A DNA stretch of 64,000 bases from a virus: IMG/VR virus record IMGVR_UViG_3300044642_000074, positions 32,001 through 96,000 of that record; one strand, written 5' to 3'. Each line of letters begins with the position of its first letter. The first letter of the stretch is position 1. Both the position numbers and the translations under genes were made by a program. The notes beneath the pieces are model-generated. The model saw only the letters and a program-made list of their open reading frames with translations, had not been told where the DNA came from and ran no database searches. This document shows positions 3,460 through 35,430 of the stretch, in pieces.

Positions 3460-4328
3460 TGAAGACAGAACTTCAATATAGAACTTTTGATCAGCTCTTG
3501 GATGAAGTCTCTGCAGACTTTACCACATATAGTATTGAGGGCATGATCGAACCTGGTCAGTTGATCAAGGTTGCTCAGCGTGTAAACTATGATCTGGGTC
3601 TGCGTATTCATGGTACCAAAGAAAAAGTACTGGATATAGAAAAGTCAAAGACTAAACTTCCGGATGATTTTTATGTGCTAAACTACGCATACCTGTGCGG
3701 AAGATATACGGTGTCTAGTCCTGTTATGGCTGGACGTGAAACAGAAAATGTCATACTTAATAAAGATCTCTGCAGAAAGTGCGGCAAACCTGATCCTACT
3801 TGTAGCTGTGAAGCTACTTATACTGTAGAGTGCAATACTGGTCAAAAAGTATTTGTACAGGTTGTAGAAAAACGTAAGTATGAAACTCGTACTTATGACA
3901 CGTTTGAACCTATTCGTATTTCCACATCTACTGGAAAAATAGATGCTACAGACGATAGGGGAGTAAGAGCAGGGTACATTAAGAATGGTTTTATTTATAC
4001 CAACCTAACTGAAGGAAGAATCTTTATTTCTTACCAGGGGTCATTAGAAGATGACCATGGTAATCTTTTGGTACTGGATCATCCTATGATTAACGAGTAC
4101 TATGAATATGCTTTGAAGCAGAGAATATTGGAGAACCTATTTATTGCTGGTGAAGAAGTAAGCCAGAAGATGCAGCTTATAGAGCAGCGTCTTAGAGGTG
4201 CTCGTAATAATGCTCTAAGCATAGTGAACACCCCGGATTTTGCAGAAATGTACAAGCTGTGGCAGACTAATAGAAAGGCCATGTATAGCAAATACTATGA
4301 TATGTTTAAATCAACCGAGGGGTTCTAG
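3459..4328 (+). CDS. Putative tail tubular/ring protein
   Basis: GYIKNGFIYTN..EG.IFISY..DDHG motif typical of crAss-like ring proteins; Cys-rich insert; coupled by TAATG overlap. Confidence 0.55.
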   Translation: MKTELQYRTFDQLLDEVSADFTTYSIEGMIEPGQLIKVAQRVNYDLGLRIHGTKEKVLDIEKSKTKLPDDFYVLNYAYLCGRYTVSSPVMAGRETENVILNKDLCRKCGKPDPTCSCEATYTVECNTGQKVFVQVVEKRKYETRTYDTFEPIRISTSTGKIDATDDRGVRAGYIKNGFIYTNLTEGRIFISYQGSLEDDHGNLLVLDHPMINEYYEYALKQRILENLFIAGEEVSQKMQLIEQRLRGARNNALSIVNTPDFAEMYKLWQTNRKAMYSKYYDMFKSTEGF

Positions 4329-4331
4329 TAT

Positions 4332-4691
4332 ATGAGAATAAAAACCACTATAAAACTTCCGACCTACAGCTGTGATCTCGTAATAAGCGTTGTTGAAAGC
4401 GTAGCCGTAGAAGCAGAGAGACTTTATAAGAAGCATAAGATAACTGAACCGTTTGGAGCTGAGGCAGAAGGAGCTCTTGTAATGATAGGTATGGAAAGAT
4501 ACTACTTGTTGTTTCACAAGGACTTTCTTACTCATAATACTATAGCTCATGAAATATTTCACGCAGCTGTTAGAATAACAGAAGATCGTGACGTGACAGA
4601 TGAAGAAGCTCAGGCTTGGGTCGCTGGATATCTTAGTGCAGTAGTATATAAATTTTTAGAAAAGAAGAAGCTAGAGATAAAACATGGCTGA
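4332..4691 (+). CDS. Small zincin-like (HExxH) protein
   Basis: TIAHEIFHAA followed by DEEAQAW. Confidence 0.6.
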   Translation: MRIKTTIKLPTYSCDLVISVVESVAVEAERLYKKHKITEPFGAEAEGALVMIGMERYYLLFHKDFLTHNTIAHEIFHAAVRITEDRDVTDEEAQAWVAGYLSAVVYKFLEKKKLEIKHG

Positions 4692-7600
4692 GCAAAGACA
4701 AAATAATCCCGGAGCTGTTACCAATACTTTTTCAAAAGGTATGGTAAAAGATTTCAATGATACCTTTGTTGGTGAAGGTCTGTGGACTCATGCCCGTAAC
4801 GCAGTTAATAATTCCCATGATGGTCAGCTGGGTGTTATAGGAAACGAACCTGCTAACCTGCATTGTGTCACACTTCCTTATGATCTCATAGGTGTTATTC
4901 ATTTAAGAGATGACCAGTGGGCAGTATATACTACAAATGATGTAGACTCTGAGATTGGTGTTTTTGATGAGAGCCAGTGTACATACACTAAGAAGGTTAA
5001 CGATCGTTGCCTCAACTTTAGACGTACAAACTTAATTACCGGCATAAGCCGTAGAAGGTTTGATTGTGAGCGTCCTGTTTACTGGGCAGATGGTAGAAAC
5101 CCAGACAGATTTATGGATCTGGATAACCCCCCGTTTAAGTTTACTGAATCTATACAAAACGGGTGTGTTACCAAAACTTATACTAACCAGCTGGATTGTG
5201 AAAAGATCCGCCTGGCTTCTTTGGTTACTGCTCCATGTATAGTCCTAGAAAAAGGAAAGGGAGCTGGTACTTTACCAAATGGATCTTACCAGGTTTGCCT
5301 GGCCTACACAATTAACCAGGTTAAGATAACTGACTATATGGGACTTTCAGAAGTTCAGTCAGTTTTTCATCATGATAATGTAAAGTCATCTTTAGAAGTT
5401 AAGATTACACAAGTTGACCAGAACTTTGACGAGTTTGAACTGGTTATTCTGGCTCAGATAAATGGAGAGACTATTGCCCGCAGAATCGGGTACTATTCTA
5501 CAAACCAGGGTACTATCTACATAGATACTCTTAGCAATGAAAGTCCTACCGTACCGATCAACCAGGTTGTTGTACGTACAGAACCTATAGAAAGAAGTGA
5601 TACCATGTACCAGGTAAATGACTACGCGTTGCGTGTAGGTGTTTACACTAAGTACAAGTTTAACTATCAGCTTCAGGCTAATAATATCCGCAGTAGCTGG
5701 GTAGCTGTAGAATATCCTGCAGAATACTACAAGAAAGGCGGAAACAATACTGGCTACATGAGAGATGAGCAGTATGCGTTTTTTATCCGTTGGGTGTATA
5801 ACACAGGAGAGAGATCTGAATCTTATCATATTCCAGGTCGTAGTGCTTTACCTACTGAAAAAGATATTGTGGTAAATGCAGATGCCTATGAAGCTGCTAA
5901 CGGAGTTACCGTACAGCGTTGGCAGGTGTATAACACTGCTACGATAGAAGGTAGAACTGCAACTTTGCTTGCAGACGGGGGAAGAGTTATTGGTACTGGT
6001 AGAATGGGTTATTGGGAGTCAACTGAAAAGTATCCTGATGATCGTCCGGATATTTGGGGCAACCTTTGCGGTCAACCTATTCGTCATCATAAGTTTCCTG
6101 ATGAAACTTGTGATACTGCTGCTACTAACCGTGTGTTAGATACATTTAGTCAGAGCGGATCTAAGATTGTTATTCTTGGTGTACAGTTTGAAAACATAAC
6201 ACACCCTCTGGATAATAACGGAAATCCTATTACCTCTATAGTAGGATATGAAATACTTAGAGGTTCCCGCCAGGGAAATAAAACTGTTATAGGAAAGGGT
6301 CTCTTAAATAACATGAGAACCTTTAAATTGCCTGAAGATACTACCAATGAAAGGTTGTTTCAGAACTATCCTTTTAATGACCTTCGTGCAGACTCTTACT
6401 TGACAACTGAATTTCAGAGTGGGACTAACGGATCTCCTGATGTAAAGTCATCTAAGATGACAGGATATAAGAAGAACATCTTTTCTTTTCATAGTCCTGA
6501 AACTACATTTAGCCAACCATTTGTAAATGCTACAGAGTTAAAAGTATATCAGCAGCTTAGCGGTACTGCTACTGGACGTTTTATTATTCCGCATAAGCAT
6601 CCTAAGTTTAAACTACCTACTAACTTTGCAGATACTATATCTGACGTATTAGGTGTAGTTCAACAGATAGCAGACATTACAAGTTTGATTGCCGGAGCTG
6701 CTCCGACTATTAATCTTCAAGGTACCTCTGATCTTCCTTTTACACAGAGTCTAATTACTCCACATAGACAAGAGTCTTTATCTGGTATATTTGCCGGGGT
6801 GACTAGTGGATGGGTCGGAACTACCGGTGCACCTGGTGCTGATACTGCAGCATCTTCAAGAAGATCTATTGCAAACACAGCTATTACCGTGGCAAACGGT
6901 ATAGTGATGGTAACGTTGGCAGCATTTAAAGCTAATGTTACTTCTGAGCAAGTATTCAGATTAATTCTTGCTTTAGTACCTTATAGACAATACGCTGCTC
7001 AATATGTGTCTCATGGTTTTTATAACCAGGCAGTTAATCAACCTTTAGATTTCAGACGTCGTTTTGTTACCAATACAAGTTATGTAGGGGCTGACGTAGC
7101 TACGTTTGGTTCATCTTATCAAATCTACAATCTTAACAGAAACCGTTTTGTGGCTGTAGAGATACCTCAAGCTACAGAATTAAATCCTCCTACAGTTGTA
7201 GATAACAGCCGTTTTATCATTAGTGAAAGAAACGCTGAGCTAAACAAAGACCTAACAAGTACAATATCTAGTTTGTACGGAGCTTTAAAGATTCCTTTAG
7301 ATGCTCAGTACGGACAGTTGGAAAGCATTAAGCAGATACCAATATCTTCCTGTGTTTTTAATACAGTAGCAAACACTACCAGCAAGTTTATTACTCCTGT
7401 TTTATTTGGAGGAGACATTTATATTAACAGGTTTACTGAGAAGAACAATATGTTGTTCTTTAATACCTGGCTGATGGGAGAACCTAACGGTGCAGAGCTG
7501 GACTATACTTTATATTTCAGCATGCCGTATTCAAGATTCTGGGTAAACAATACAGATCTTAACGGTGGCTTGTTTGAAGGAGCTTCTAATTTCAGGGTTC

Positions 7601-10227
7601 TGGACGCTAGAGAGTCAAGACTATTTTCAATATCAAAAGGTTACTTCTACTTGTTTAACTCAGGAGTACGTGACTTTTTTGTAGAGAGTGACGTTAACAT
7701 AGCATACCGTGATTGGGATGACCAGCTCGGCAGAAGACACTACGACCCCTATGAAATTGCAGATCTTAACTTACTGATGAGATCTGATGTAATAAAAGAA
7801 AGTAACATATACAAGTATGATTACTCTTTAAGTATATCTAAGCTTTTCAACTCTCAGATTACCTGGGGTAACATGCTTCCTAGGGACTATGATCCTAAGA
7901 AAGCCGAGACATGTTATGTGTATTATCCTAATAGGGTAGTCTACTCTTTGCCTCAGCAGGATGACAGTCGTAAAGACAGTTGGAGAATATATCTTGCCAA
8001 TAACTATAAGACAATGGGTGGTAGAGTTACTGCCATCAAACCAGTAAATAAGACTGGGGCATTGTTTATGATGGCTTTTCAAAGTCCACTCCAGTTTATG
8101 GGAGTAGAGGAACTAAAGCTTGACGCAACTGGTGCAAAGATTACTATAGGTGACGGTGCTTTATTTTCAGGTCCGCAACAGCTACAGGCTATTGTAAACT
8201 CTGATGAAAGCTATGAATACGGATCTTGCCAAAACAGGTTTGCTACCGTTGGTTGCACACATGGGATATTCTGGGTCAGCCAGAACCAGGGTAAAGTATT
8301 TCAGTACCAGGGAGGTTTAAAGGAAATCTCTAGAGACGGAATGAAATGGTGGTTTGCAAACTATCTTCCTAGTGAACTTCTTAAATTATATCCTAACTAT
8401 CCTTTGTATGATAATCCTGTTGCAGGTATTGGAGTACAGATGATTTATGATAATACAAATGAGATAATCTATATTACTAAGAAAGACTATAGACCAAAGA
8501 GAAAAGACTTGTTATATGATCAGGGTGGCTTTTATTATGAGGGCCCAGGGTCAACAACAATTAATACATGCCCTCCGGGTTATACCCTACAGGGGAATAC
8601 CTGTGTAGCTAATACTGCAACGTGTCCTCCAGGTCATCAGTTGATCAACGGAGTATGTACCAAAACTGAAACGATAGATCCAATTCAGTCTGGTCAGGTA
8701 GTAGAAGTATCTAGAACACCATTTGAGGTTTACGGTAATCAAGGTACAAGAGTATACAGTGCCGCTACTGTTGGTTCTACTTCTACTCTTTTAAATACAA
8801 GCAATCCATTTTGGATACGTCAAGTTAGTCCGGCAAACTGGAACTCACTTACTGCAGATCAGAAACAAGCGTTTGATCTTAACAATGGACCGGTAAACCG
8901 TATCTCTATATGGGGGCGTACACTATCCGGATCTACTGTACTAAATAACTATAACCACAGCGGTGCTGATCTAAATCCTGTTAGTCAATGGATTGGCTTC
9001 GATGTTTGTATAAATATCACAACAACTAAGACATACTATGTAGCTATTGCTGCAGACAATGATTACAGGTTTTCTTTGGACGGAAACCTGATCTTAAGTG
9101 ACACTGGTGGTACTACTGCTACTTTTAACTTCCTTCATATCTACCCTGTAACTATTACAGCTGGTAGTCATATACTTCGTTTGGAAGGGAAGAACAACGG
9201 TCAGAAAGCAGGATTTGGTTGTGAGATTTTTGACCTAGATAACAGACCAACTGGTACCAGTGTGGTAGATTTCTTAAATGCTCAGACGAGCTACGATAAT
9301 TTGATTGTAGTCTTTACAACCAGAAACGTAACACAGTTTTCTTCTAACCTGTACACCTGTCCTGTTGGATATGGTTTAGCTAACCCTACCTGTACAGAAC
9401 CTGTATGTCAAAGAATTACTACAGCTGCTCCTGTGTTTGATACAAAGCAGCCTACTGTAGTTACAGTAAAAAATAAGATCTACTGCAACTTTGATAAAGG
9501 TGAATGTTGGGAAAATGCTAGCTGGACTATTTCTTACGATCCTAAGACACAGACCTGGATATCATTTCATGATTGGATTCCAAGCTTCCTGATTCCTGGT
9601 AAGGCTCACTTCATGAGCGTTAACATGAACTCTATATGGAAGCATAACATTCGTTGTGATAAGTACACTAACTTCTATGGTATAGACTATCCGTTTGAGG
9701 TAGAGTTTGTATCAGCTACCGGTCAGGTAGTTAATTCTATGAGAAACATAGAGTACTTAATGGAAGCATATAAGATGCACAATGACTGCCGTGATAAGTT
9801 TCATGTACTAGATGCAAACTTTGATCAGGCTATTATACATAATTCAGAACAAATATCCGGTCTTCTTGAACTTGAACTGAAAAGCAAGACTAATCCTGTA
9901 GCTATGTTGAGCTATCCTCAGGTCCGTACTCAGTCTATTGGAATAAACTATTCTAAGGAAGAGAATAAGTACAGGTTTAATCAGTTCTGGGATATCACGC
10001 GTAACCGCGGAGAGTTCCAGGGAGTGAATGTTCCGATGTTTAACACAGAACCAAACGGATATAAGTTTCAAATAAACCCTACTTATGTGAACTATAATAA
10101 ATCTCCACTGGAGCGTAAGAAGTTCAGACATAACGTAAACAAGGTATTCTTAAGAAAATTAGTAAGTAATGATACCAAGTATCTATTTAAGATATCTAAC
10201 CAAAAGATTCTACAAAGTCCTAGATAA
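4684..10227 (+). CDS. Tail stabilisation/muzzle protein with Cys-repeat and PA14-like insertion
   Basis: 1847 aa; N-terminal NTFSKGMVKD, YMRDEQYAFFI, GGDIYINRF and C-terminal WTISY..WISFHDW motifs typical of crAss-like muzzle proteins; follows the ring genes. Confidence 0.7.
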   Translation: MAEQRQNNPGAVTNTFSKGMVKDFNDTFVGEGLWTHARNAVNNSHDGQLGVIGNEPANLHCVTLPYDLIGVIHLRDDQWAVYTTNDVDSEIGVFDESQCTYTKKVNDRCLNFRRTNLITGISRRRFDCERPVYWADGRNPDRFMDLDNPPFKFTESIQNGCVTKTYTNQLDCEKIRLASLVTAPCIVLEKGKGAGTLPNGSYQVCLAYTINQVKITDYMGLSEVQSVFHHDNVKSSLEVKITQVDQNFDEFELVILAQINGETIARRIGYYSTNQGTIYIDTLSNESPTVPINQVVVRTEPIERSDTMYQVNDYALRVGVYTKYKFNYQLQANNIRSSWVAVEYPAEYYKKGGNNTGYMRDEQYAFFIRWVYNTGERSESYHIPGRSALPTEKDIVVNADAYEAANGVTVQRWQVYNTATIEGRTATLLADGGRVIGTGRMGYWESTEKYPDDRPDIWGNLCGQPIRHHKFPDETCDTAATNRVLDTFSQSGSKIVILGVQFENITHPLDNNGNPITSIVGYEILRGSRQGNKTVIGKGLLNNMRTFKLPEDTTNERLFQNYPFNDLRADSYLTTEFQSGTNGSPDVKSSKMTGYKKNIFSFHSPETTFSQPFVNATELKVYQQLSGTATGRFIIPHKHPKFKLPTNFADTISDVLGVVQQIADITSLIAGAAPTINLQGTSDLPFTQSLITPHRQESLSGIFAGVTSGWVGTTGAPGADTAASSRRSIANTAITVANGIVMVTLAAFKANVTSEQVFRLILALVPYRQYAAQYVSHGFYNQAVNQPLDFRRRFVTNTSYVGADVATFGSSYQIYNLNRNRFVAVEIPQATELNPPTVVDNSRFIISERNAELNKDLTSTISSLYGALKIPLDAQYGQLESIKQIPISSCVFNTVANTTSKFITPVLFGGDIYINRFTEKNNMLFFNTWLMGEPNGAELDYTLYFSMPYSRFWVNNTDLNGGLFEGASNFRVLDARESRLFSISKGYFYLFNSGVRDFFVESDVNIAYRDWDDQLGRRHYDPYEIADLNLLMRSDVIKESNIYKYDYSLSISKLFNSQITWGNMLPRDYDPKKAETCYVYYPNRVVYSLPQQDDSRKDSWRIYLANNYKTMGGRVTAIKPVNKTGALFMMAFQSPLQFMGVEELKLDATGAKITIGDGALFSGPQQLQAIVNSDESYEYGSCQNRFATVGCTHGIFWVSQNQGKVFQYQGGLKEISRDGMKWWFANYLPSELLKLYPNYPLYDNPVAGIGVQMIYDNTNEIIYITKKDYRPKRKDLLYDQGGFYYEGPGSTTINTCPPGYTLQGNTCVANTATCPPGHQLINGVCTKTETIDPIQSGQVVEVSRTPFEVYGNQGTRVYSAATVGSTSTLLNTSNPFWIRQVSPANWNSLTADQKQAFDLNNGPVNRISIWGRTLSGSTVLNNYNHSGADLNPVSQWIGFDVCINITTTKTYYVAIAADNDYRFSLDGNLILSDTGGTTATFNFLHIYPVTITAGSHILRLEGKNNGQKAGFGCEIFDLDNRPTGTSVVDFLNAQTSYDNLIVVFTTRNVTQFSSNLYTCPVGYGLANPTCTEPVCQRITTAAPVFDTKQPTVVTVKNKIYCNFDKGECWENASWTISYDPKTQTWISFHDWIPSFLIPGKAHFMSVNMNSIWKHNIRCDKYTNFYGIDYPFEVEFVSATGQVVNSMRNIEYLMEAYKMHNDCRDKFHVLDANFDQAIIHNSEQISGLLELELKSKTNPVAMLSYPQVRTQSIGINYSKEENKYRFNQFWDITRNRGEFQGVNVPMFNTEPNGYKFQINPTYVNYNKSPLERKKFRHNVNKVFLRKLVSNDTKYLFKISNQKILQSPR

Positions 10228-13200
10228 TGAATAAGCTGCTCCAACATATTATGAATGCGGGGGATGTATCAGATAAGTTTCTGGTGCATTTCAATAATGG
10301 AGTACCTCTTACTAAGAAACCTTTAGTAAAAGCTCAGCAGGGTATTCAAAACGTTACCGTAGATGGTAAACGTATGAGGACAGATTCTCCTGAATATAAA
10401 AATCTTTACAGTAAAGGCATAGGCCGTTGGATGAAAAAAGATGCTTCAGGAAACTGGGTACCTGGTACTGCCAATGATTCTGGGTCTGAGTTTGTATCTT
10501 CTCCCAAGACATTAGAAGAAGTTGTTGTTAAGAGTACAGTTAAACCTAACTCACTTGGAGCATACTCTTCCAAATTCTATAGAGAAAATCCTTTTGAAAC
10601 CTTCTTTAAAGATAGGTATGGTCAGATAAAAGATGAATTTACTTCAGAGCCTATATGGGCTCAACGTGCAGTAGGTGGATGGGATAGAGAAAGTAGACAG
10701 AAGAATATACGTGAGCAGATTCAACAAGAGTATGATAAGAAGTATAGTGATTACTTAACCCAAAGATTACTTCAAAGAAATCCTCAAGGAGACCAGTACA
10801 GGGATGATTGGTTATCTAATAAGAACTTTACTAACAGGGAACTTAGTATACTTACTGCTAATGAAAACCTGCCTCAGCCAAACTTATATTCTCAGGGTGC
10901 TCAGGGTCTCTACAATACTGCTGATATGTTGGCTCTTGGAAAGCTTCCAGAGCTTGCTGTACCTGGTATAGCTAAATCTGAAGTTGCTCAGTATAACAGT
11001 CCTTTACTTACTTTTCAACCGCTTTCTATTCCAGCTAAGATGGTTCAGTCTTTTTACACAGACGACTATACATTTAGAGACGCTGTGAGAGGTACTCCTA
11101 ATAAAGCAAGTCTTACGGAAGATATAATTACTGATCCTTTAACATGGTGGACACTTGGTGGTAAATCATTACTTACTGCGGCTGGTAAAGCCAGTGGTAT
11201 AAATACTGCAAGGTTTTTTCCTGAAGTAAGTAACTTTTCTAAACTATCTAAGCCACCAAAAACACAGTTTGCTCAAGATGCTGATGACTTTTTAAAAGCT
11301 GGTAAAGAAGTAGTAGATCCTGAAACAGGTGTATCTAAATTTGTTTATGAGCTGGATGATGTATCTACTGCTTCTGATAATCCTTTTGTTTGGTATCCTG
11401 ATAGTCAAGCAGGTAAAAAACCTTATACAGGTGGTGGCGTGGAGCTTACATTTGATGACTTAGTAGATGTATCTGATATTCCTGTTCTTAATAACAAGAT
11501 CAGTCCTATTGGTACTAGTGGATCAAAGACCTTTGGAAGTACCTTATCTAATATTTACGATAAAGGTAAGAGCAAGCTTATGAAGCTTTTTGCTAATACA
11601 AACCAATGGGATGTTTCTAAACCACTTGGTACTTTGCAAGATTATAAAAGTTGGGGTAACAATATTCATAAAGAACTTGATTATGTAGATCCTGCTCTTA
11701 TCCGTGATGCTCACAAAAAAGCTATAAAATATTTTAAATCTACCGGACAGTGGGGGAATATGCAAAACTCACCTAGAGAGTTCGGTCTTTTTATAAGGGC
11801 AGAACTAGCTGATAAAATACCATCTTTTGCAAATCCTGTAGTAGTTGATCCTGCAACGGGAGCTAGATTCAATTATGGACAAGAGGCTTGGCATCCGAGT
11901 TTATACCCAGATAATCAGCAAGCCATGTATTTTAGCACGGTTAGAAACGAGGCTGAATATTACAAAGATGCTCCATTTGCTGCACAAGAGGCTCAACCGC
12001 TTTCTTGGGGGTATGATGCAGAAAAATTTACTCCGCAAGAAGCTAATCTTATAACAGGGTATGCACATGGTTATGATAATCCTCTTAATAATGTGTTTAG
12101 AGCTAGATCCACAGTAGGAGCAAAAAAATTTTATGAAACTAAAGGTAATGAGTTAAATACAGCTGTACAGAAGAATAAGTTTCCTGTAGCTACTCAAGTA
12201 AGAAGAGGTGTTGATAACTATCCTGTAGAGATTTTAGATCCAGTTACCTATAAGCCAACTGGTGTTTTTAAGAGACGTTCTGAATTAGGTGTAGGAGATG
12301 TATTTAAAGATGAAGGTTTTATGTCCACTAGTCTTAATACTAACCATACATGGGGAACAGCCGATGCTTCAGAACTTATTGATATACCCGGAGGCGGAGT
12401 TCAGTCTTATGCTTTTCCTAACGCTATGTCAAACAGCCCTTATTTTCCCGAGGCTGAGGCTATATTACCAAAAGGATTAATACGTAAAGTAGAAGAAGTA
12501 AGAGAACCCGTAAGCGGTGGTAGTTATGGTTTTCCTAATAATGCCAGAATCAGAACTAGTATATTAAATCCTTATAGTGTTTTACTTCCAGTAGTTGGTG
12601 GTGCGGCTGCAATACAAGGTCAGAAAAAACAAGGTGGTCCTATTGTAGACCCGCGTGGTCAGTGGGCTCATCCTGGTAAAGTTACTCGTATACCTGGATC
12701 AGATATTACTATGCAGGGAGTAAACTACCCGGTGTATGCCAAACCTAACAAAGGCAAAGGTGGTATGATGTATCCAGGGGGGAATTACTCTTTCCCCAAA
12801 GCTGATTATGTAGATGAGTATCCTATGATGCAAAGAGGAGGTCAATATATAGACTCTGTGTTTAACGCTAACCGAAATCTTAACTGGGTAAAACGACTAT
12901 ATGATAAAAACACACCTAGTATCCAGATTCCTGGAGAGCCTTACCCGTCTACCCACTACATGGAATATGCCGATAACCGCGTATATCCTCAAGTAGTACA
13001 GATGCCAGATGGTAAGTTGAAACACCTGGGTAAGAACGCTTACGACTATGCTGACTCTACTAAAACATACATTAAGTTTCCAACAGAAGCTGATGCTAAA
13101 TGGTTTAGTCAAAACTATAAGAAGGGTAAAGGCGTATTAGGTAACAGGCAATTAGGAGGTCAGTCTGCAGGGAAAAGTCCTTACTTTTTTATGAACATTA

Positions 13201-14135
13201 ATAATGATATGGAAGAAAGATTTCGTGCCCTTGATTATGTTAAAGATGAATATAACAAGGGTATGGATTTTCATACTAAGTGGCTTAACTCACCTATGTA
13301 CAAGAGTATGATTAACGCGTCTGATCCTGCCAATGCAAAACAAATTACTGACCAACGTAAAAAACGTCTTTCTGCTGTGACTATGAAATACGTTGATACT
13401 GCATATGGCCCAGATATTAGGACTGGAGCTACAGCTGATAATCTAGGAAATATAAAGGTATACCCAATAGGTGTTGGTCATAACAGCGTTGGTACTCATG
13501 AAATATCTCATGTAACAGACAATGGTCCAGGGCTCGATCTTATACCTGCTAAAGATCAAATTAACATTTTAGAAAAAGCTTATGATAAAGTAAACTTACC
13601 AAAGTATGAAGCTGATAAAGAGTATGTTGATTATATTACTAAACCAACAGAGACAAGAGCTAGATTAAATCAAATACGTCAGCAAGCTTCTGAAAATAAA
13701 TTATATGACCCTTTTACTCAAAAAGTAAACCCAGCTATATATAATAAACTTAAAAATTTTAAGTTTGATAAGTCAGTAGACTGGAGTCCTCTTCAACAGT
13801 TAAAAGAAGCTTATAGTGATCAACAGATTATGGAACTGCTTAATAGTGTTTCTAAAGTAAATACTAATAACGATATGCAAAACATGATGGCCAGTGGTGG
13901 ACAGCATGGCGGTCTTGACCGTTGGTTTGCAGAGAAATGGGTAGATGTAAAGACAGGAAAAGCATGTGGTAGACAAGAAGGTGAAAGCAGAGCTTACCCG
14001 GCATGTCGTCCTTCTAGACGAGTATCATCCCAGACACCAAAGACTTCTTCAGAAATGAGTCCTGCTGAGAAGGCTAAGTTTAAAAGGACTAAGACATCCT
14101 CAGAACGTATAAACTATAATCATAAAAGAAATTAA
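10227..14135 (+). CDS. Multidomain putative virion cargo protein: ADP-ribosyltransferase, zincin and small basic domains
   Basis: ART motifs VRRG (12198), FMSTS (12318) and EAE (12450); HEISH (13497) with downstream ETRAR; C-terminal GLDRWFAEKWVD...CGR...YPACRP; xxxGG linkers. Confidence 0.75.
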   Translation: MNKLLQHIMNAGDVSDKFLVHFNNGVPLTKKPLVKAQQGIQNVTVDGKRMRTDSPEYKNLYSKGIGRWMKKDASGNWVPGTANDSGSEFVSSPKTLEEVVVKSTVKPNSLGAYSSKFYRENPFETFFKDRYGQIKDEFTSEPIWAQRAVGGWDRESRQKNIREQIQQEYDKKYSDYLTQRLLQRNPQGDQYRDDWLSNKNFTNRELSILTANENLPQPNLYSQGAQGLYNTADMLALGKLPELAVPGIAKSEVAQYNSPLLTFQPLSIPAKMVQSFYTDDYTFRDAVRGTPNKASLTEDIITDPLTWWTLGGKSLLTAAGKASGINTARFFPEVSNFSKLSKPPKTQFAQDADDFLKAGKEVVDPETGVSKFVYELDDVSTASDNPFVWYPDSQAGKKPYTGGGVELTFDDLVDVSDIPVLNNKISPIGTSGSKTFGSTLSNIYDKGKSKLMKLFANTNQWDVSKPLGTLQDYKSWGNNIHKELDYVDPALIRDAHKKAIKYFKSTGQWGNMQNSPREFGLFIRAELADKIPSFANPVVVDPATGARFNYGQEAWHPSLYPDNQQAMYFSTVRNEAEYYKDAPFAAQEAQPLSWGYDAEKFTPQEANLITGYAHGYDNPLNNVFRARSTVGAKKFYETKGNELNTAVQKNKFPVATQVRRGVDNYPVEILDPVTYKPTGVFKRRSELGVGDVFKDEGFMSTSLNTNHTWGTADASELIDIPGGGVQSYAFPNAMSNSPYFPEAEAILPKGLIRKVEEVREPVSGGSYGFPNNARIRTSILNPYSVLLPVVGGAAAIQGQKKQGGPIVDPRGQWAHPGKVTRIPGSDITMQGVNYPVYAKPNKGKGGMMYPGGNYSFPKADYVDEYPMMQRGGQYIDSVFNANRNLNWVKRLYDKNTPSIQIPGEPYPSTHYMEYADNRVYPQVVQMPDGKLKHLGKNAYDYADSTKTYIKFPTEADAKWFSQNYKKGKGVLGNRQLGGQSAGKSPYFFMNINNDMEERFRALDYVKDEYNKGMDFHTKWLNSPMYKSMINASDPANAKQITDQRKKRLSAVTMKYVDTAYGPDIRTGATADNLGNIKVYPIGVGHNSVGTHEISHVTDNGPGLDLIPAKDQINILEKAYDKVNLPKYEADKEYVDYITKPTETRARLNQIRQQASENKLYDPFTQKVNPAIYNKLKNFKFDKSVDWSPLQQLKEAYSDQQIMELLNSVSKVNTNNDMQNMMASGGQHGGLDRWFAEKWVDVKTGKACGRQEGESRAYPACRPSRRVSSQTPKTSSEMSPAEKAKFKRTKTSSERINYNHKRN

Positions 14136-14146
14136 TTATATATCCT

Positions 14147-15958
14147 ATGGCTAACAAACCTAATAATCCTGCCCTTTGGTCTAAAGCTAAGTCTTTAGCT
14201 AAACAGAAATTTGATGTCTATCCCTCAGCCTATGCTAACGGCTGGGCAGCTAAGTGGTACAAAGGTAAAGGAGGTACTTGGCGTAAAGCTGAGTACGGAA
14301 TGGAAGTACCGTTTATGAATAACGGTGGAGAAAAAATGCCACCCGAGATTGCTCGTGCACGTTTTGCTGCAGCAGGTAATCTTGATAAGATGGGTGATTA
14401 TGGTTATGCTTATGGTGGAGATACACCTAAATATATGCAACAAGGTGGACAACAAGATCAGATTATGATGGTTATTCAGCAGTTTGCTCAAATGAATCAA
14501 GTTGATCCCCAAGAAGTTATACAGCAACTTCAACAGTTGCCTGCTGAACAACAACAAGCAGCTATTCAAAAGATGGCAGAAACAATACAACAAGCTTCTC
14601 AGCAGCAACCTGATATGGTGCAAGCTGCTATGGCTTATGGTGGATATACTACTGGTGTATTTGCTGATGGTGGAGAACCTGATGGGTCTATGGCCCTTGG
14701 TCAGATAGATGCTGCAGTAGATAAACTTCAGAAACTTCGTCAGTTTATTCAACCTGAGTCTGATCTAGAACCATGGGTAAGTTCTAAACTTACTAAGATG
14801 GATGATTATGCAGATGCCGTGTCTGACTACATGATGTATAACCCAGAAGCCCAGGGAGAGATGATGGAAGAGCCTCAGGGACTTCCTATGCAACAAATGA
14901 AAGAAGGTGGTATTCCTACCCGTTACAAGAACATGGGCTTTTCTAAAGTTGGGGCTAAGAAAGAATCTACCCGTCCTGGTAAAAAGTGGATGGTGCTAGC
15001 CAAGAAAGGTAGTGACTATAAAGTAGTACACGGTGGATACGATGGTATGAAGGACTTCTCTCAGCATGGATCTGAGAAACGTAAAGATCGTTTCTGGGAC
15101 CGTATGGGTGGTAAGAACTCAGCTAAAGCCAAGGATCCGTTTAGTCCTTTGTACTGGCATAAAAGATTTGGTACCTGGCAAGATGGTGGAGAGATATATG
15201 GTATGGGTGGATATATACCAGAATATGGCATGGGTGGCATGCCTTGTTATGAATGTGGTGGTATGTTTGCAGAAGGCGGAATGTATGATTGCCCTGATCA
15301 GGAGAAAGACCCTGTAACAGGTAAGTGTAAAGCTGAGGTTGTTCGTGGTAGAGAAGCAAATGCTGCTAACAAAGCAGCTAGTGCAGACATGAACGCATGG
15401 GCTAAGCAAGTTGCTGCTATGGATAAAGAAGTTGCTAAACAGAATGCTGCTCAGTATGCTGGACAAAAAAGTTTTGATTATGACTGGATGCAATCTCCTG
15501 TAGATAAAGCAGAGAAGAAAGCAGCTATTGCTCAATACAAACAATTTATTCAGCAGAACCCTAATGTATTTGTAGCAGATGATTCATCTGGGTACAATCC
15601 AGAACAGAAGTATATCATTGCTTCTAAGCTTAAGCAAAAATCAAGCACTCCAATGGGATCTAAAGCATTCCAGCAAAAGTTTAACCAGGATGCACGTTTG
15701 CTAGATCTTGGACGTATACAGTCTGACATTGTTCCTTTAATGGGTGGCTGGAGTGGAATTCAGAACTGGCTGTTTGGTAATAAAAAATTCGGTGGCTACA
15801 TAGGACAAGACGGAAAGCGTCACATATCTAAGACACCTACCTGGTCTGGAAATACCGGTTATCAAGAAGGTGGTCCTGTTCTAGGGGATGTAATGGATGT
15901 AACACCTGAACAGCTTGAAGTTCTTCGTGCTCAAGGCTATGACTTTGAAATAATCTAA
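14147..15958 (+). CDS. Multidomain phi-x-x-GG repeat protein, putative virion cargo
   Basis: 13 phi-x-x-GG motifs separating small domains and a Q-rich segment. Confidence 0.7.
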   Translation: MANKPNNPALWSKAKSLAKQKFDVYPSAYANGWAAKWYKGKGGTWRKAEYGMEVPFMNNGGEKMPPEIARARFAAAGNLDKMGDYGYAYGGDTPKYMQQGGQQDQIMMVIQQFAQMNQVDPQEVIQQLQQLPAEQQQAAIQKMAETIQQASQQQPDMVQAAMAYGGYTTGVFADGGEPDGSMALGQIDAAVDKLQKLRQFIQPESDLEPWVSSKLTKMDDYADAVSDYMMYNPEAQGEMMEEPQGLPMQQMKEGGIPTRYKNMGFSKVGAKKESTRPGKKWMVLAKKGSDYKVVHGGYDGMKDFSQHGSEKRKDRFWDRMGGKNSAKAKDPFSPLYWHKRFGTWQDGGEIYGMGGYIPEYGMGGMPCYECGGMFAEGGMYDCPDQEKDPVTGKCKAEVVRGREANAANKAASADMNAWAKQVAAMDKEVAKQNAAQYAGQKSFDYDWMQSPVDKAEKKAAIAQYKQFIQQNPNVFVADDSSGYNPEQKYIIASKLKQKSSTPMGSKAFQQKFNQDARLLDLGRIQSDIVPLMGGWSGIQNWLFGNKKFGGYIGQDGKRHISKTPTWSGNTGYQEGGPVLGDVMDVTPEQLEVLRAQGYDFEII

Positions 15959-16768
15959 TCTATGAAAATACGTATTACAAAAAAAGGGCTACCTAAAGCT
16001 CAGTGGTTAAACAGTCAACCTGGAGTTCAGTTACAGCTGCCTGCCAGTTCGCAACCTAACTTTGCATGGATGACATCTCAGCAGATGCAGAATTATCTTA
16101 TGCCTGCTGCTCCACAAACGTTACCTGTTAACAACACAAGCCTTCCTCCTGATGTTATTATTCCTAGGAACTTGTATCCAGCTATGACAGATGCTGAGAT
16201 GGCTCCTCCTGAAGTTCTTGATCAACAAAACCAAGTAAGTCAACCTGTTGATATAGCAGCTGCTTTAGGTATTGGACCAAAGAGAGAAGCTTGGGAAATA
16301 GAGCAGCAGAAAAAATATGATACCGATCCAAACTATGCATTGAAGTTTGATGATAGTGTTGGCTTTGGTATGCTTCAGGGGTATACAGATCCTAAGCGTC
16401 TTACTAGTAGGCAAGATCTTAAGAAGTACGTAAACTTCTTTAACAAAAAGTACGGTACGAAACTAAAGATGCCTACTTACAATCCAGGCTTAGCTAAGGC
16501 TGCTAACGCTGTTAGTACAGGTATTGGAGCTTTGGCCTTAGCTGGTAATGCAGTAGATTATTTAGAAGCTAATAAAAAAGGAAAAGAGTGGGAACGTTTC
16601 TTCCGTCAGCGTATGATGGAACCTGCTCCCAATACTGAGTTTGAAGGTATTGAGAATATTAACTCCGGAAGAATGTTTGAAAACATGCTACCTAAACCTA
16701 ATCAAGGACGTTTTGATTATGGTGGTGTAGCTAACAATATGTTTGATTCTATGAAAATACGTATTACA
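15959..16768 (+). repeat. 21-nt direct repeat TCTATGAAAATACGTATTACA at 15959-15979 and 16748-16768
   Basis: Exact match read from the sequence; encodes MKIRIT at the gene start and again internally in frame. Confidence 0.9.
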
Positions 16769-19162
16769 TCTGCTCCTCAGTCCATGGAGTATGGAGGTCA
16801 GTCTAACTACGGACTTGATCTTGGTAGAAGAAAAATCTATACAGACATGCCTGAGTCCCAGGCTGAGTCAGTTACTAGTTCTGTAGGAGCTGTACCTAGA
16901 GCTATGGCGAATATTGAAGCTGAAGGCGGAGAAACTGTCTTTGGAGACATGGACGGTGATGGAGCTATGGAACATATGAACATAGTTGGTAAACGTCACC
17001 ATCAAGGTGGTGTACCATTAAATGTACCTGAAGGAAGTTTTATCTTTTCAGATACAGCTAAGATGAGAATCAAAGATCCTGCTGTTCTTGCTATGTTTGG
17101 TAAGACTATTACAAAAGGAAATAAAGGATATACTCCGGCTCAAATTGCTAAGCAGTATAACATAAATAAGTATAAAGCAGTAATGGAAGATCCTAATGCG
17201 GATCATGTTGCCAAAGCTACTGCACAGTTAATGGTAAACAATTACCGTAAGAAACTTGGTGGCCTTGCTCTGATACAAGAAGAGATGAAAGGATTTCCTC
17301 AAGGTATACCTCAAGTAGCTGAAGCTGCTACAGACAAACCTATGATGGCAAAGTTTGGCGGATACCTTCCGGAATATCAAACAGCAGGACAAGCTCCTCC
17401 TGTTATACCTCAAGCTTTTAGGATAACTTCTTTGACTCCTGAGGTACAAGCTGCGTTAGCTGAATTTGCTAGCCGTCAAAATCCTGGGGGTGGTCAAAAT
17501 ACAACAGTGTCTGCGTCTAATACCAGATCTCCTCAGGCTTTAGCTGATATGAGTGACCCAGAGTTCCAGAAGTTTATGGATCTGGTTAACAAGTATGATA
17601 ATAAGCAGAGAAAAGATGCTAGTTATATAAATTCTATGACAGATGCAGACGCTAAAGAGTTTGCCCGTCTTGCTACCAAGTTTGGTTTTAAAAGAACAGA
17701 CAAAGATGGTAAACAGCAGTATAGAGTTGTACAAGGATCTACTCCAGATTATAACTTTACAATAAAAGGTAAAGACGGAAAACCTCAAAAGATTGGATTT
17801 TTTGGTGGCTACCGTCCGCAGCAATACGAGCGTAGAGTTGTAGAAGATGTTCTTGGAGAAGACTCTGTAAAGAATATGAGTGAGCTAGATATCCGTAAAG
17901 CTTACTTTAAAGAACTTGGTGTTGATGTAAGTGGTATGAGTGATGATCAGTTAAAGGATTCTAAGAAACTTTATACTGATGCAAACTTTTTTCAAAATGT
18001 CTTCTATCCTAAGTTTACTCAAAGGTTTGGTAAAGATGATTACCGTAGCCAGCTTGGTGATGACTTGTTGATTGGTGCTGAGCACTATGATGCATATCGT
18101 AAAAAAGAGAAATCTCAGGATACTACCGTTATAGGTTATATCTGTAAGGGTGTGTCTGCAAATGGTGCTCCTATTGTAGAAAGTTCTAGCTTTAGAGATG
18201 AAGCTGCTTTGGCTGCAGCTGGTGCGTCTAAGTCATACCAAGTAGCTATCTTAAACTGTGGCAAAGACACTGATATAGATATAGATATTATTCCTGGAAA
18301 GAAGAAGCAACCTACTGACTTCATGACTCCTGATAAGCTTACGTTAATGGCTGCTGCAGCTATTCCACCAAAAGGATATTTTCCTTTTGTATCGGATATG
18401 CCGTTTAGACCGGGTCAACTAGCTTTAGAAGACTGGTTAAGCCAGGTTCAGAATATTCAACAGGGGTATAACACTTCAGCAAATATGTTGGGTACATACA
18501 ACCCTGGTACAGCTATGGCGTCTAACTTATCTTTCTTAGCAGGTCAGGCTGGTGATCAGACTGCCCAGGCTATTTCACAGGTAGGCAGCCGTAACGTTGA
18601 CAGATTCAACCAATTTGCAAACACTGAGACTCAGCGTAGACAGAATGTTGATGCATACAATACATCAGCCAGAGACAAACGCTGGGATGGGTACACTGTA
18701 ACCAAACAAAACCTAGATAATGCTCGTAGGAGATATCTTAATACAGTCACTAAAGCCACTAATAATATGTGGGCTAACCGTATGTACTTAGATATGATTA
18801 ATTCTGTTAATCCTTTCTTTAATGTAGATCCTAGATCTGGTCTTTCTTATTTTACAAATGATGGGTATACTACAAAAGATCTTGGAAGAAGTTCTGCCGG
18901 TGCAGGTGGAGGAGGTATAGATTGGTCTGAAATAAGCAGAGGCTTTCAAGATGCCAAAGGCAAGTTTCCTGGTCTTACTGAAGAGCAGTATCTCAGAATG
19001 ACCAATCAAAGAACTACATCTGTTGATACAAACAGAGACGGTCTACCTGACAGGACAAGTACTGCAAACATGGGACCCATGAGCTACATGTCTCAGATGC
19101 TTCCTATGTATATGGCAATGTCTAACATTGCTAGATCAGCTAATCCTTTTACCGGGCAATAA
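15962..19162 (+). CDS. Putative virion cargo/ejection protein with EAEGGE...GxxHxxGGV domain
   Basis: NIEAEGGETV and GKRHHQGGVPL motifs seen in Bacteroidota phage virion proteins; FDYGG, MEYGG and AKFGG motifs. Confidence 0.6.
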   Translation: MKIRITKKGLPKAQWLNSQPGVQLQLPASSQPNFAWMTSQQMQNYLMPAAPQTLPVNNTSLPPDVIIPRNLYPAMTDAEMAPPEVLDQQNQVSQPVDIAAALGIGPKREAWEIEQQKKYDTDPNYALKFDDSVGFGMLQGYTDPKRLTSRQDLKKYVNFFNKKYGTKLKMPTYNPGLAKAANAVSTGIGALALAGNAVDYLEANKKGKEWERFFRQRMMEPAPNTEFEGIENINSGRMFENMLPKPNQGRFDYGGVANNMFDSMKIRITSAPQSMEYGGQSNYGLDLGRRKIYTDMPESQAESVTSSVGAVPRAMANIEAEGGETVFGDMDGDGAMEHMNIVGKRHHQGGVPLNVPEGSFIFSDTAKMRIKDPAVLAMFGKTITKGNKGYTPAQIAKQYNINKYKAVMEDPNADHVAKATAQLMVNNYRKKLGGLALIQEEMKGFPQGIPQVAEAATDKPMMAKFGGYLPEYQTAGQAPPVIPQAFRITSLTPEVQAALAEFASRQNPGGGQNTTVSASNTRSPQALADMSDPEFQKFMDLVNKYDNKQRKDASYINSMTDADAKEFARLATKFGFKRTDKDGKQQYRVVQGSTPDYNFTIKGKDGKPQKIGFFGGYRPQQYERRVVEDVLGEDSVKNMSELDIRKAYFKELGVDVSGMSDDQLKDSKKLYTDANFFQNVFYPKFTQRFGKDDYRSQLGDDLLIGAEHYDAYRKKEKSQDTTVIGYICKGVSANGAPIVESSSFRDEAALAAAGASKSYQVAILNCGKDTDIDIDIIPGKKKQPTDFMTPDKLTLMAAAAIPPKGYFPFVSDMPFRPGQLALEDWLSQVQNIQQGYNTSANMLGTYNPGTAMASNLSFLAGQAGDQTAQAISQVGSRNVDRFNQFANTETQRRQNVDAYNTSARDKRWDGYTVTKQNLDNARRRYLNTVTKATNNMWANRMYLDMINSVNPFFNVDPRSGLSYFTNDGYTTKDLGRSSAGAGGGGIDWSEISRGFQDAKGKFPGLTEEQYLRMTNQRTTSVDTNRDGLPDRTSTANMGPMSYMSQMLPMYMAMSNIARSANPFTGQ

Positions 19163-21614: not shown

Positions 21615-24600
21615 ATGATAGAAAACCTTTTTGAACAAGGCTTAGATAACGTTGACGTTCCTGAAAACTTGGAAGAAACTCCAGGTTTAGAACTTGGTAA
21701 TCTAGATCAGCCTGAAAGTCCTGAGCAAAGTCCATTAGGAACACCTGCTCCTGTTCAATCTACACCTTCGGTTGATCCTCCTACAAAGAAGTATAAGTCT
21801 TATGAGGCTGCTTTGGATGCTGCAGAACTTGGGGCTAAAAAGTTTTTTCCTTTTGCTGATACTGACTTCTTAAGATCCAAGACTGTTTCTGGTGATCGTG
21901 CCAGAAAGTATAACGATATGGAATATGGCTACCGTTATGGTGTAGACATGGATGACTTTTACGGGGAGATGGAAAGTCCGCTAACTACTTTTGCTAAAGG
22001 AGCAGGTAGATTTGTATTAGGTGTAGGAACCAAAGTAGGACAAGGTGCAGGTTTTCTTTTAGGTCTTGCAAACCCTCAGAATTGGGATGAAGATATTATT
22101 ACAAAAGCTTCCGATAACGGTATTACATATTTATTTGACCAGCTGGACGAAAAGACCAAGCAAGATTGGTTACCTACTTTTCAAGAAGCAGCTGATAGAG
22201 ACAAAGGTTTTTGGAATAAGTTTTTTACAGATGGGGATTTTTGGATGACTGATGCTGTAGACGGTGCTGCATTTCTAGTATCTGCATGGGTACCGGGTAT
22301 GGCATTGTCTAAGTTAGGTCTAGGAACAAAGTTAGCTCAAAGTCTTTCAGGTCTTAGACTTGGTGTTGGCGGAGCTGAAGCTGCTGTAGAAGGAGCAGCC
22401 ATGACACAGAACTATCTTACTAAAGCTAACAGTATCTTCAAAACAGGTATTGATAAGTTTAATGCTTGGGCTTTAGCAACAAGTTCTGAAGCTATGTTTG
22501 AAGCTGCAGAAGCAAGAAGGGGTATTATAGACTCATTGACTTATGATGAGTTTGGACGTTTGAAAATTAATCCTGTTACAGGAACTCCATATTCAGAAGA
22601 TGAGAAAAGAAAGATTGCCGGTGGAGCTGCTCAGAATAGTTTCTTACTTAATGCTGCTTTGCTTGCTGGTACAAATGCTTTAGAACTTAGATGGATAGGC
22701 TCTATGTTTGGAGCTGGAGAAAGAGCTGCTGTTAGTGGAATAACCGGTGCAACTAATCTTACAGACCGTATGGTTGCAGAACAGGCAGTAGGTAAGTTTA
22801 GTAAGTTTTTATCATCTGGTAAGGGTGCTTTTTTAAGTGGAGCTACACAAGGTATTCTTGCAGAAGGTTTTGTAGAAGAGAATGCTCAGCTTGCTATACA
22901 GCGTGTAAATCAGCAGTATGGTATGCAAGGTAAGGTTGCTGAATTTGGTAACCTTGGAGACTTTATAACTCAGTTTAAGAATCAAACCTTCAATGCTTTA
23001 ATCGGCAAGGACCCAGAGGCTGCTACTAGTATAGGTATTGGTGGTATTCTTGGTACGCTAGGAGGTGGTATATCTTCTACAATACAACAGCGTAAAGATA
23101 GAACTCTTACAGAACAGGTAATAAATGCATATAACTTAGCCCAGGATAACTGGCTTAAGTTTGGTAACATATATAAAACTCAAGATGTATTTACTGTAGA
23201 TGAACAGGGTACTACTGTAAAAACACAGCAGGTAGTCTTTGATCAAAACGGGGAACCTGTAGTTGATCAAGAAAAACTGTCGGGTGCTTTAACAGGTTAT
23301 ACTGCAGTAACAGCTGCACTAGATGAAGCTTCAAAACTACAACCAGGTTTTCAAAGAGATATACTTAGAGACACTGCTTTTGCAGATTTTGTAACAGCTC
23401 ATATTAATGCTGGTATAGAAAACACTGTTATAGATAAACTTAACAGTCTTCAAAAAGCTTCACCTCAGGATCTTGCAAAGCTTGGATTTACTGTTGGTGA
23501 AAACGCAGAGCAGCAGATCAATAGGTATAAGAACCTAGCATCTGCTATTATCAATCAGAACAAACTGATTAACTCTGATATCTTGGTTGACAATAGCCAG
23601 GAAGATAAAGCCCGTAAAAATTATTTATTAAAGCTTGCTGCTGACCAGGCTGTATATAAGAGCTTGGTAAATGAGAACCAGACAGCCCTAACCGAGATAC
23701 AGAATCAGTTAGTTACTTCTGAGAATTCTTCATTGTCAGATGGTTTAGTAGAACAGCTTAATGAGCTTGCTCAAAGGATCAAGTCTCAGGAAGAGATACT
23801 TCAGGAAATGGGTACTAGTCCTGACACTGGTATTCGTAAGCAGGTAGCTAATCAAGTACTTGATGAGCTGAAGCAAAACTACGAACAGTTAGAAAAAGAT
23901 AATACTACAACTATTCAGAGTCTTAAAAAAGACAAGGATGGTTTTTATGAATATGAAAAACCAGGCCGTAATATACCTGGTGTATATGATCAGTACAAGA
24001 AGAAAGTAAGATTAAAAGGTGAACTGCAAAACCAGATTAAGTTAAATGGCCTTGAGTGGTCTAAGTATGCTGATACTAAAAACGGTAAGCAGAACTTTTT
24101 ACAGATGTTCAAAGAGGACATTGTTGATCCTTTAACTCAAGCCGCAGCTGAAGCTCAGGACGCACAGTCTCAACTCGGAAAAACAATTACTCTTACTGGC
24201 ACAGATGCTAACGGTAATCCTAAAGCAATAGATATAACCGTAGGTAAACTGTACGTTGGTAAGTTTACCAAGTCAGAAAGATACAGAGGCAAGCAGATTG
24301 TATCTGTATTTAATAATGATAAGATTAAGATATTAGATATATCAGAGGATGGCTCTACCGTTACTATAAAGGCTAATGGAGAGGTTATGGAAATGTCAGC
24401 ACAAGAGCTGGCAGATATTGCTATACCAGAAAACTGGAGAGCGTTTGATTCTTTAACTGATGATCAGAAACTTTATTTGACCCTGCGTAACCAAGTAATT
24501 GAGTACAGGGTTTTAGAACGAGATGCATCAGGTAAACCTATAAAACAAGCTAATGGTAAGTACAAGACACGCGTTGTAAAAGGACGTGTGGCTATGAATA

Positions 24601-35426: not shown

Positions 35427-35430
35427 ACCT

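Follow-up and report, generated by a model that had tools for sequence, protein, structure and literature searches.

Three adjacent genes in a 64,000-nucleotide (nt) stretch of viral DNA (IMG/VR record IMGVR_UViG_3300044642_000074, positions 32,001 to 96,000; hereafter the window, to which coordinates refer) encode proteins of 1302, 603 and 1066 amino acids (aa) that share a short motif, Phi-x-x-G-G, in which Phi is Met, Tyr, Trp or Phe and sometimes Lys. The motif is a conserved seam between modules, lying in disordered linker and usually directly before the next module, and, as aligned relatives indicate, it is the point at which modules have been inserted, swapped, fused or split. It is real and apparently undescribed, a literature search having found no published description of it. 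The virus record spans 114.8 kb, is assigned to the crassviruses and is about 88% complete, and the three genes probably encode modular crassvirus proteins that are packed in the virion and ejected, that is, polyvalent cargo. As to what the seam does, we lean tentatively, at somewhat less than an even chance, towards an uncut, turn-forming flexible joint that would allow these proteins to fold and to be threaded module by module.

Few known phages are as abundant as crassviruses, and the seam bears on how several megadaltons of protein are stored and ejected by them. A seam at module junctions provides a rule for parsing giant unannotated proteins into modules, and it helps to trace effector exchange between phages and to design tests of packaging and ejection. 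Seams that are cut or docked would amount to a new viral processing or loading code, and seams that stay uncut to a compact way, found in nature, of passing multi-domain proteins through a narrow channel. An initial annotation of this DNA had described bead-on-a-string cargo proteins whose motifs serve either as sites for a maturation protease or as docking signals; added here are an analysis of natural free ends, a census of proteases and zincins, controls from outside the lineage and a correction concerning a four-cysteine (4-Cys) unit.

Occurrence, enrichment and conservation of the motif

Every motif named in the initial annotation was found where it had been placed, including KKQGG, MQRGG, RQLGG and MASGG in the 1302-aa protein, 13 of the 13 listed for the 603-aa protein, and FDYGG (16712), MEYGG (16784) and AKFGG in the 1066-aa protein (Table 1). 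One more, KGKGG at residue 39 of the 603-aa protein, was absent from that list and is part of the conserved N-terminal module. Enrichment was counted with the pattern [MFYW]xxGG. Against whole-protein shuffles, the 603-aa protein holds 12 copies versus 1.29 expected (p<0.0005) and the 1302-aa protein 5 versus 0.97 (p=0.0035), while the 2 copies of the 1066-aa protein versus 0.95 expected are not significant. A second shuffle, confined to 20-aa blocks and thereby preserving local composition, gave 12 versus 2.36 (p<0.001), 5 versus 1.15 (p=0.006) and, again not significant, 2 versus 1.15, respectively. The enrichment that the initial annotation had put forward for checking is therefore strong in the 603-aa and moderate in the 1302-aa protein, whereas the 1066-aa protein, taken by itself, shows none. 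Genome-wide, the three genes carry 19 motifs in 2,971 aa against 16 in the 33,618 aa of the other 107 open reading frames (ORFs), a density about 13 times higher (odds ratio 13.5, p=2e-12), and the 4603-aa fused polymerase protein has none versus 1.97 expected. The register is specific as well: Met or an aromatic residue is 2.5–3.3 times commoner at position −3 from GG than at other flanking positions in all three families, including that of the 1066-aa protein (34% versus 13% elsewhere in the flanks).

The same holds in relatives. More than 3,700 exist for the 603-aa protein, the best 119 of which contain a median of 11 motifs versus 1.16 expected, and 113 relatives of the C-terminal half of the 1302-aa protein contain 739 versus 136 expected. 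The resulting logo reads [M>Y>K,W,F]-[A/Q/K/E]-x-G-G-[E/Y/T]-[P/T]. Phi and GG are 93–100% conserved at 9 of 14 orthologous sites in the 603-aa family, while the two x positions, with a conservation of 0.41, fall below other linker residues.

In an AlphaFold2 prediction for the 603-aa protein, built on 42 aligned sequences (mean predicted local distance difference test score, pLDDT, of 58), each of the 13 listed motifs falls within or borders a stretch of pLDDT<50, and these stretches separate small modules predicted with confidence, namely helices at residues 102–152 and 180–230, DUF5754 at 258–341, a long helix at 395–439 and a C-terminal mini-domain at 577–603. The motif directly adjoins the next module at MQQGG (helix from residue 102), MKEGG (DUF5754) and YQEGG (C-terminal domain). 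The three proteins are bead-on-a-string proteins, as had been claimed. The accompanying claim that motifs sit at domain boundaries agrees with the linker positions in this model but does not extend to YECGG and FAEGG, which lie inside the 4-Cys unit, a probable zinc ribbon by its sequence.

Natural chain ends and module exchange

By comparison with relatives, the 1302- and 603-aa genes are the split form of one protein that is elsewhere encoded whole. Fused relatives (about 1,000–1,850 aa) read ...HRRKEYGGEQTEQD-MANKPNNP... in place of the stop, the 11 nt and the start found here. Of 80 related IMG/VR loci, 24 show a split arrangement, with the N-terminal module of the 603-aa protein at the start of an ORF, and 29 a fused one, with that module inside an ORF; each of the 29 fused DUF5872N modules has the motif directly upstream, typically as M-K-x-G-G-N-V-P-T-N-P. 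Taken together, the two genes (10227–15958) correspond to one protein of ~1,800–1,900 residues in relatives (e.g. P0126, 1844 aa), which shares their N-terminal tag as well as their ...FEII mini-domain at the C-terminus. At the junction (13869–14281), the C-half of DUF5872 ends the first gene and its N-half opens the next; fused relatives keep this order, whereas in the Pfam model the N-half stands before the C-half.

New here is that, in alignments, the gene ends of natural stand-alone relatives map onto the motif. Stand-alone N-termini fall within −6 to +3 of the residue after GG in 50% of 7,064 alignments versus 10% for random positions, and 51% of stand-alone C-termini lie −4 to +8 from the motif start versus 12% at random; these alignments are not mutually independent, and the effect is repeated across module classes, the N-terminal coincidence recurring in several that are unrelated. 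At the KKQGG seam before the 'GQWAHPG' module of the 1302-aa protein, for example, stand-alone relatives have an M(G/A/P/R)KKK start aligned to MQQGG. Because free ends fall at the motif, it belongs to neither neighbour, being kept where modules are joined and dropped where they are separate. This argues against a handle that each module needs, and is compatible with a joint and with a cleavage site alike.

Exchange of modules is seen in the 603-aa family. The 119 relatives cover residues 1–350 and 562–603, with coverage dropping in between; the ends of high-scoring segment pairs (HSPs) cluster at 349–350, just after WQDGG, and their starts at 562–573, at YQEGG. The variable cassette thus delimited holds L,D-transpeptidase (YkuD), tail lysozyme, DUF3597 or other domains in relatives (Pfam, 10 relatives). 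The order of YkuD, lysozyme, DUF3597, DUF5872 and DUF5754 varies, with motifs between the mapped modules, and DUF5754 may stand before or after the cassette modules while keeping its own flanking motifs. Amidase and SLT are other modules seen in relatives, and the C-half of DUF5872 is >85% identical across very different upstream contexts. The idea of modular swapping in the initial annotation is in line with these results, the motif marking the boundaries at which relatives swapped, fused or split modules.

Table 1. Positions in the window, strand and supporting evidence for the three motif-bearing genes, their seams and their modules.
Feature	Position	Strand	Evidence or remark
1302-aa protein, probably of polyvalent cargo type	10227..14135	+	N-terminal KAQ tag (candidate), ADP-ribosyltransferase, 'GQWAHPG' module, predicted zincin, DUF5872 C-half
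KKQGG seam before 'GQWAHPG' module	12624..12638	+	G803/G804 invariant in 33 relatives; stand-alone relatives begin here
MQRGG seam closing 'GQWAHPG' module	12828..12842	+	G871 nearly invariant
RQLGG before zincin region; no Met/aromatic at −3	13146..13160	+	Motif coordinate check
HEISH, sole HExxH of the cargo and virion RNA polymerase block	13497..13511	+	Motif scan
MASGG seam before DUF5872 C-half	13887..13901	+	G1224/G1225 invariant in 33 relatives; diverse upstream modules adjoin here in relatives
11-nt gap between 1302- and 603-aa genes	14136..14146	.	Fused relatives read ...KEYGGEQTEQD-M... here
603-aa bead-on-a-string protein, motif-richest gene	14147..15958	+	12 [MFYW]xxGG vs 1.29; AlphaFold2 model
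Linker with MNNGG, YAYGG, MQQGG (residues 57–101)	14315..14449	+	pLDDT<50; Phi and GG 97–100% conserved in aligned relatives
Linker with MAYGG, FADGG (residues 162–176)	14630..14674	+	Fold model; conservation in relatives
MKEGG seam directly before DUF5754	14897..14911	+	M251, G254, G255 invariant; moves with DUF5754 in rearranged relatives
DUF5754 module	14963..15106	+	Pfam PF19058, E=1.2e-6
WQDGG, YGMGG, YGMGG array; end of conserved N-terminal block	15176..15238	+	HSP ends cluster at 349–350; pLDDT<50
Variable cassette (residues 350–562)	15194..15832	+	Coverage drop and breakpoints; Pfam on 10 relatives
4-Cys mini-module containing YECGG and FAEGG	15245..15328	+	CYECGG...YDCPDQEKDPVTGKC conserved in 29 relatives
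YQEGG seam and conserved C-terminal mini-domain (...FEII)	15860..15955	+	pLDDT about 90; C-terminus of most family members
1066-aa protein, probable C1-like (portal-binding) core	15962..19162	+	1,598 relatives; motif not enriched on its own
FDYGG, second MKIRIT start (16751), MEYGG	16712..16798	+	Many relatives start at query residue 264; both motifs in low-confidence stretches
Folded core of 1066-aa protein	16871..17320	+	pLDDT>90 over residues 304–453; top structural match 7qog_M
AKFGG just after folded core	17348..17362	+	G203/G204 of segment invariant in 33 relatives

Joint, processing site or handle

In the reading that we favour, that of an uncut flexible joint, each 30–150-residue module would fold and unfold separately while the chain is stored, and the chain would then be threaded through portal and tail, as proposed for C1 of crAss001, a single chain that runs from capsid to tail and partly unfolds during ejection (PMC10172136). 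The conserved hydrophobic residue shows that selection acts on more than floppiness. We infer that the chain is threaded and that it stays uncut, and several points weigh against this. The conservation gap between Phi/G/G and other linker residues is modest (0.71 versus 0.62, p=0.013, all low-confidence segments). A passive hinge leaves the near-invariant GG and the site-specific Met, Trp or Tyr unexplained, which suggests recognition by a partner, and a cleavage site would explain just as well why the motif is missing at free ends. Few proteins of this incomplete genome are recognised by Pfam, and an unrecognised protease may be present.

Cleavage by a phage or host protease, at the end of GG or inside it, which would free the effectors either in the head or following injection, seems to us rather unlikely. 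It would account for the strong conservation of GG and Phi at orthologous sites and for why already separate genes lack the motif; since the motif sits immediately before modules, cutting would yield N-termini equal to those of stand-alone relatives. Zincin peptidases have been proposed to process polyvalent proteins (PMC5512222), fused crassvirus virion proteins have been called 'likely cleaved' (bioRxiv 10.1101/2020.03.07.982082), and a zincin is predicted inside the same 1302-aa protein. However, no Peptidase_C39 (PF03412), C48 (PF02902) or C5 (PF00770) was found in the genome at E<=1, in a record of this completeness and with divergent enzymes able to escape the search; no Peptidase_S78 prohead protease was matched in the genome, and Pfam gave no peptidase family in 20 structural-module ORFs. 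Zincins of the 1302-aa type are detectable by BLASTP in just 7 of 80 related loci, compared with 53 for the DUF5872 C-half, 62 for DUF5754 and 68 for the 1066-aa core, and HExxH of any kind occurs within motif-rich ORFs in 20 of 78 loci; this census covers 10-kb flanks, the distant gp65-like gene, whose zincins are discussed by Drobysheva et al. (bioRxiv 10.1101/2020.03.07.982082), lying outside them. In the logo, Phi stands three residues before the first Gly and hence at P5. Adenain-type and double-glycine-leader sites have their hydrophobic residue at P4 instead, with Gly at P2 and P1. Tandem arrays comprise 2–5 motifs spaced 7–10 residues apart, so that cutting would release only tiny peptides of that length. 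Pro follows GG at two module-preceding seams, that of the C-terminal mini-domain (27 of 40 relatives) and the 'GQWAHPG' seam (GGPI in the consensus of 33 relatives), and Tyr follows it at 12.5% of sites, where an N-terminal Tyr in a cytoplasmic product would be an N-degron. The fused polymerase protein, moreover, lacks the motif. With no cognate protease found and the zincin a sporadic module, the cleavage-site reading of the initial annotation finds no support. A broader form of the idea, in which Phi-x-x-G-G is the recognition code of a processing machine (a protease of unknown family) or of a loading machine (a portal or capsid receptor) in one crassvirus lineage, is possible though doubtful.

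As a multivalent docking or packing handle, the motifs would bind the portal, the capsid interior, the tail barrel, DNA or each other in the manner of stickers and spacers. Dense arrays do leave no room for modules between motifs, Met or aromatic residues together with Gly resemble sticker-and-spacer low-complexity sequence, and gp45 of crAss001 has FAYGG 7 residues after its portal-bound domain. We nevertheless consider such a handle improbable. Instead of being retained by each module, the motif disappears at natural free ends, which weakens the docking signal of the initial annotation, no motif is resolved in the crAss001 structure, in which residues 431–547 of C1 are modelled, and cultured crassviruses that pack cargo are not enriched. 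More remote still, indeed very improbable, is that the motif has no function of its own and is a by-product of Gly/Tyr/Met-rich linker composition, of common descent or of a DNA signal such as a GGTGG recombination hotspot. Relatives do share descent, so that counts among homologues are not independent, and 18 of 23 motifs (78%) use GGT for their first Gly. Yet the enrichment survives shuffles that preserve local composition and the −3 register is specific, which largely refutes this reading, and the motif recurs beside many unrelated modules. A cause at the DNA level (hotspot or codon bias) was rejected, the use of GGT in the motif being close to, and not clearly different from, the 63% of other GG dipeptides in the genome.

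Genome context and proposed assignment to the virion

A crassvirus major capsid protein is matched by Pfam upstream, and the CrAss tail ring proteins are found at 2785–3456 (protein 2) and 3459–4325 (protein 1). The 1847-aa protein that follows (4684–10227) is collinear with the N-terminus of crAss001 gp44, the muzzle (E=1e-4). Farther along, the 4603-aa protein (21615–35426) is a fusion of a part like gp67 of phi14:2 and the catalytic virion RNA polymerase part, with BLASTP matches to phi14:2 gp66 (E=2e-28) and crAss001 gp50 (E=2e-27); a Pfam search of it returned no family, its polymerase identity coming from BLASTP. The muzzle-like and polymerase matches agree with the gene order given in the initial annotation: the three motif genes are placed between the muzzle-like gene and the virion RNA polymerase genes, and therefore at the position of the crAss001 cargo genes gp45 and gp46, which lie between muzzle and virion RNA polymerase genes (PMC10172136). 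It is from this gene order and from module homology that we infer packaging in the virion. Pfam PF25725 (crAss_CARG1) matched neither the 1066-aa protein nor anything else in the genome; PF25712 (crAss_CARGO2) had no match in the genome, and BLASTP of a 786-aa protein against gp46 was also empty.

Within the polymerase block (21615–40050), no Phi-x-x-GG occurs in the 4603-aa protein, in which gp67-like and gp66-like (catalytic) parts are joined. In the 1539-aa gp49/gp65-like protein, a PD-(D/E)XK nuclease is matched and HExxH is absent, although a zincin is described for its phi14:2 orthologue, gp65.

Modules of the 1302- and 1066-aa proteins

Module boundaries in the 1302-aa protein follow Pfam matches (ADPrib_exo_Tox at residues 598–760, DUF5872 at 1215–1290) and conserved blocks. 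The zincin region has a protein-atlas lead, LPD23, at 0.91, and neither a Pfam match nor a match in a PDB sequence search. It is similar (E=3e-5) to both zincin modules of phi14:2 g070, a protein detected in virions by tandem mass spectrometry. In Cellulophaga phage phi14:2, g070 (10360–12141 of its locus) is the first gene after the muzzle gene; its two zincin modules, with HEFTH and HEFIH, stand in tandem, and their junction reads ...NEAAMGG-PVDPP.

The core of the 1066-aa protein is probably homologous, by comparison of its predicted fold, to the portal-bound domain of crAss001 C1. Chain M of PDB 7QOG aligns to it over 94 of 126 residues at 21% identity (VIA-align Z 5.2, root-mean-square deviation 3.4 Å) and is its top match both there and in Foldseek (E=0.25), tied with unrelated helical chains. 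Against crAss001 gp45, BLASTP and hidden Markov model comparisons of the core were not significant and the hhalign probability was 8.9%, and a PDB sequence search with the protein found no match. MKIRIT occurs at residues 1 and 264 (15962–16770); many relatives start at the second copy, and the first 263 residues would therefore be an added N-terminal module that duplicates the start tag.

A second short sequence, K-A-Q, is a candidate N-terminal tag for packaging or ejection. It occurs as PLVKAQQG at residue 33 of the 1302-aa protein (10323–10343) and as GLPKAQ at residue 10 of the 1066-aa protein (15989–16003), lies within the first 45 residues in 48 of 113 and 48 of 150 relatives, respectively, and appears again after the 1066-aa core, where the family consensus reads YGGxLPKxQxGG.

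Lineage specificity

A tblastn search of 50,697 phage records with the 603-aa protein gave only a 27-residue match, in two cyanophages. Residues 3–29 (14153–14233) are 93% identical to a hypothetical protein of the Synechococcus myophages Sf-CH5 and Sf-CH8, a mini-domain common to very distant phage groups. DUF5754 is found inside a 1393-aa portal fusion of Aphanizomenon phage CL131, with 1 motif versus 0.77 expected and no such flanks, and as an 82-aa stand-alone ORF without the motif in Flavobacterium elemoviruses, which are podoviruses. The CL131 protein (gp012, 2402–6583), annotated as a portal protein with DUF5754, matches PHROG 220 ('minor head protein and DNA pilot'). Among cultured crassviruses, crAss001 gp45 has three F-x-x-GG versus 1.37 expected, crAss001 gp46 has none, and g068–g070 of phi14:2 are not enriched. 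Because the modules occur in other phage types, and cultured crassviruses pack cargo, without enrichment, the seam is a trait of an uncultured crassvirus branch rather than of the modules.

Published gel lists of crAss001 obtained by matrix-assisted laser desorption/ionization (PMC6235969) were tried as a test of gp45 length and set aside as uninformative, gp45 never rising above shuffled expectation in bands 1–10. Peptide-mass fingerprinting of these bands gave gp44, gp50 with gp47, gp49, gp20, gp26/gp22, gp22/gp25, gp25 and gp23. While gp45 (90.8 kDa, about 12 copies expected) is undetected there, band 5 clearly shows the portal, of which as many copies are expected.

Comparison with known systems

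Adenain, pS273R of African swine fever virus and the C39 leader peptidases act on Gly-Gly after a hydrophobic residue in viral or exported and loaded proteins, a likeness that is offset here by Phi at P5 instead of P4 and by a genome in which no such protease family was found. T4-type loading of head cargo differs in that no prohead protease gene (Peptidase_S78) was found here. To our knowledge, no recurring short motif links numerous mini-modules in the ejection proteins of T7, P22 and N4. Those podovirus proteins (T7 gp14–16, P22 gp7/16/20 and those of N4; PMC10172136) are internal, pass portal and tail unfolded, degrade the cell wall and act early.

Polyvalent proteins (Iyer, Burroughs, Anand, de Souza and Aravind, 2017; PMC5512222) combine unrelated effector and wall-degrading domains in one chain that is delivered with the DNA. 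The 1302-aa protein likewise joins several unrelated domains in one polypeptide (ADP-ribosyltransferase, HExxH region and DUF5872), the presence of ADP-ribosyltransferase and predicted zincin in the same chain and the extensive domain shuffling being further points of likeness. It differs in the sporadic occurrence of the zincin and in seams with one recurring Phi-x-x-G-G; a term search of PMC5512222 for 'glycine' or 'linker' came up empty, and a conserved junction peptide is apparently not described there. The cargo proteins C1 (gp45) and C2 (gp46) of Bacteroides phage crAss001 (Bayfield et al., 2023; PMC10172136; PDB 7QOG) share the gene position of the proteins described here, and C1 is the best structural match of the 1066-aa core, is itself rich in Gly and carries F-x-x-GG shortly behind its portal-bound domain. 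The crAss001 proteins show no clear enrichment of the motif, whereas the marine proteins described here, which have no CARG1 or CARGO2 match, are far more modular.

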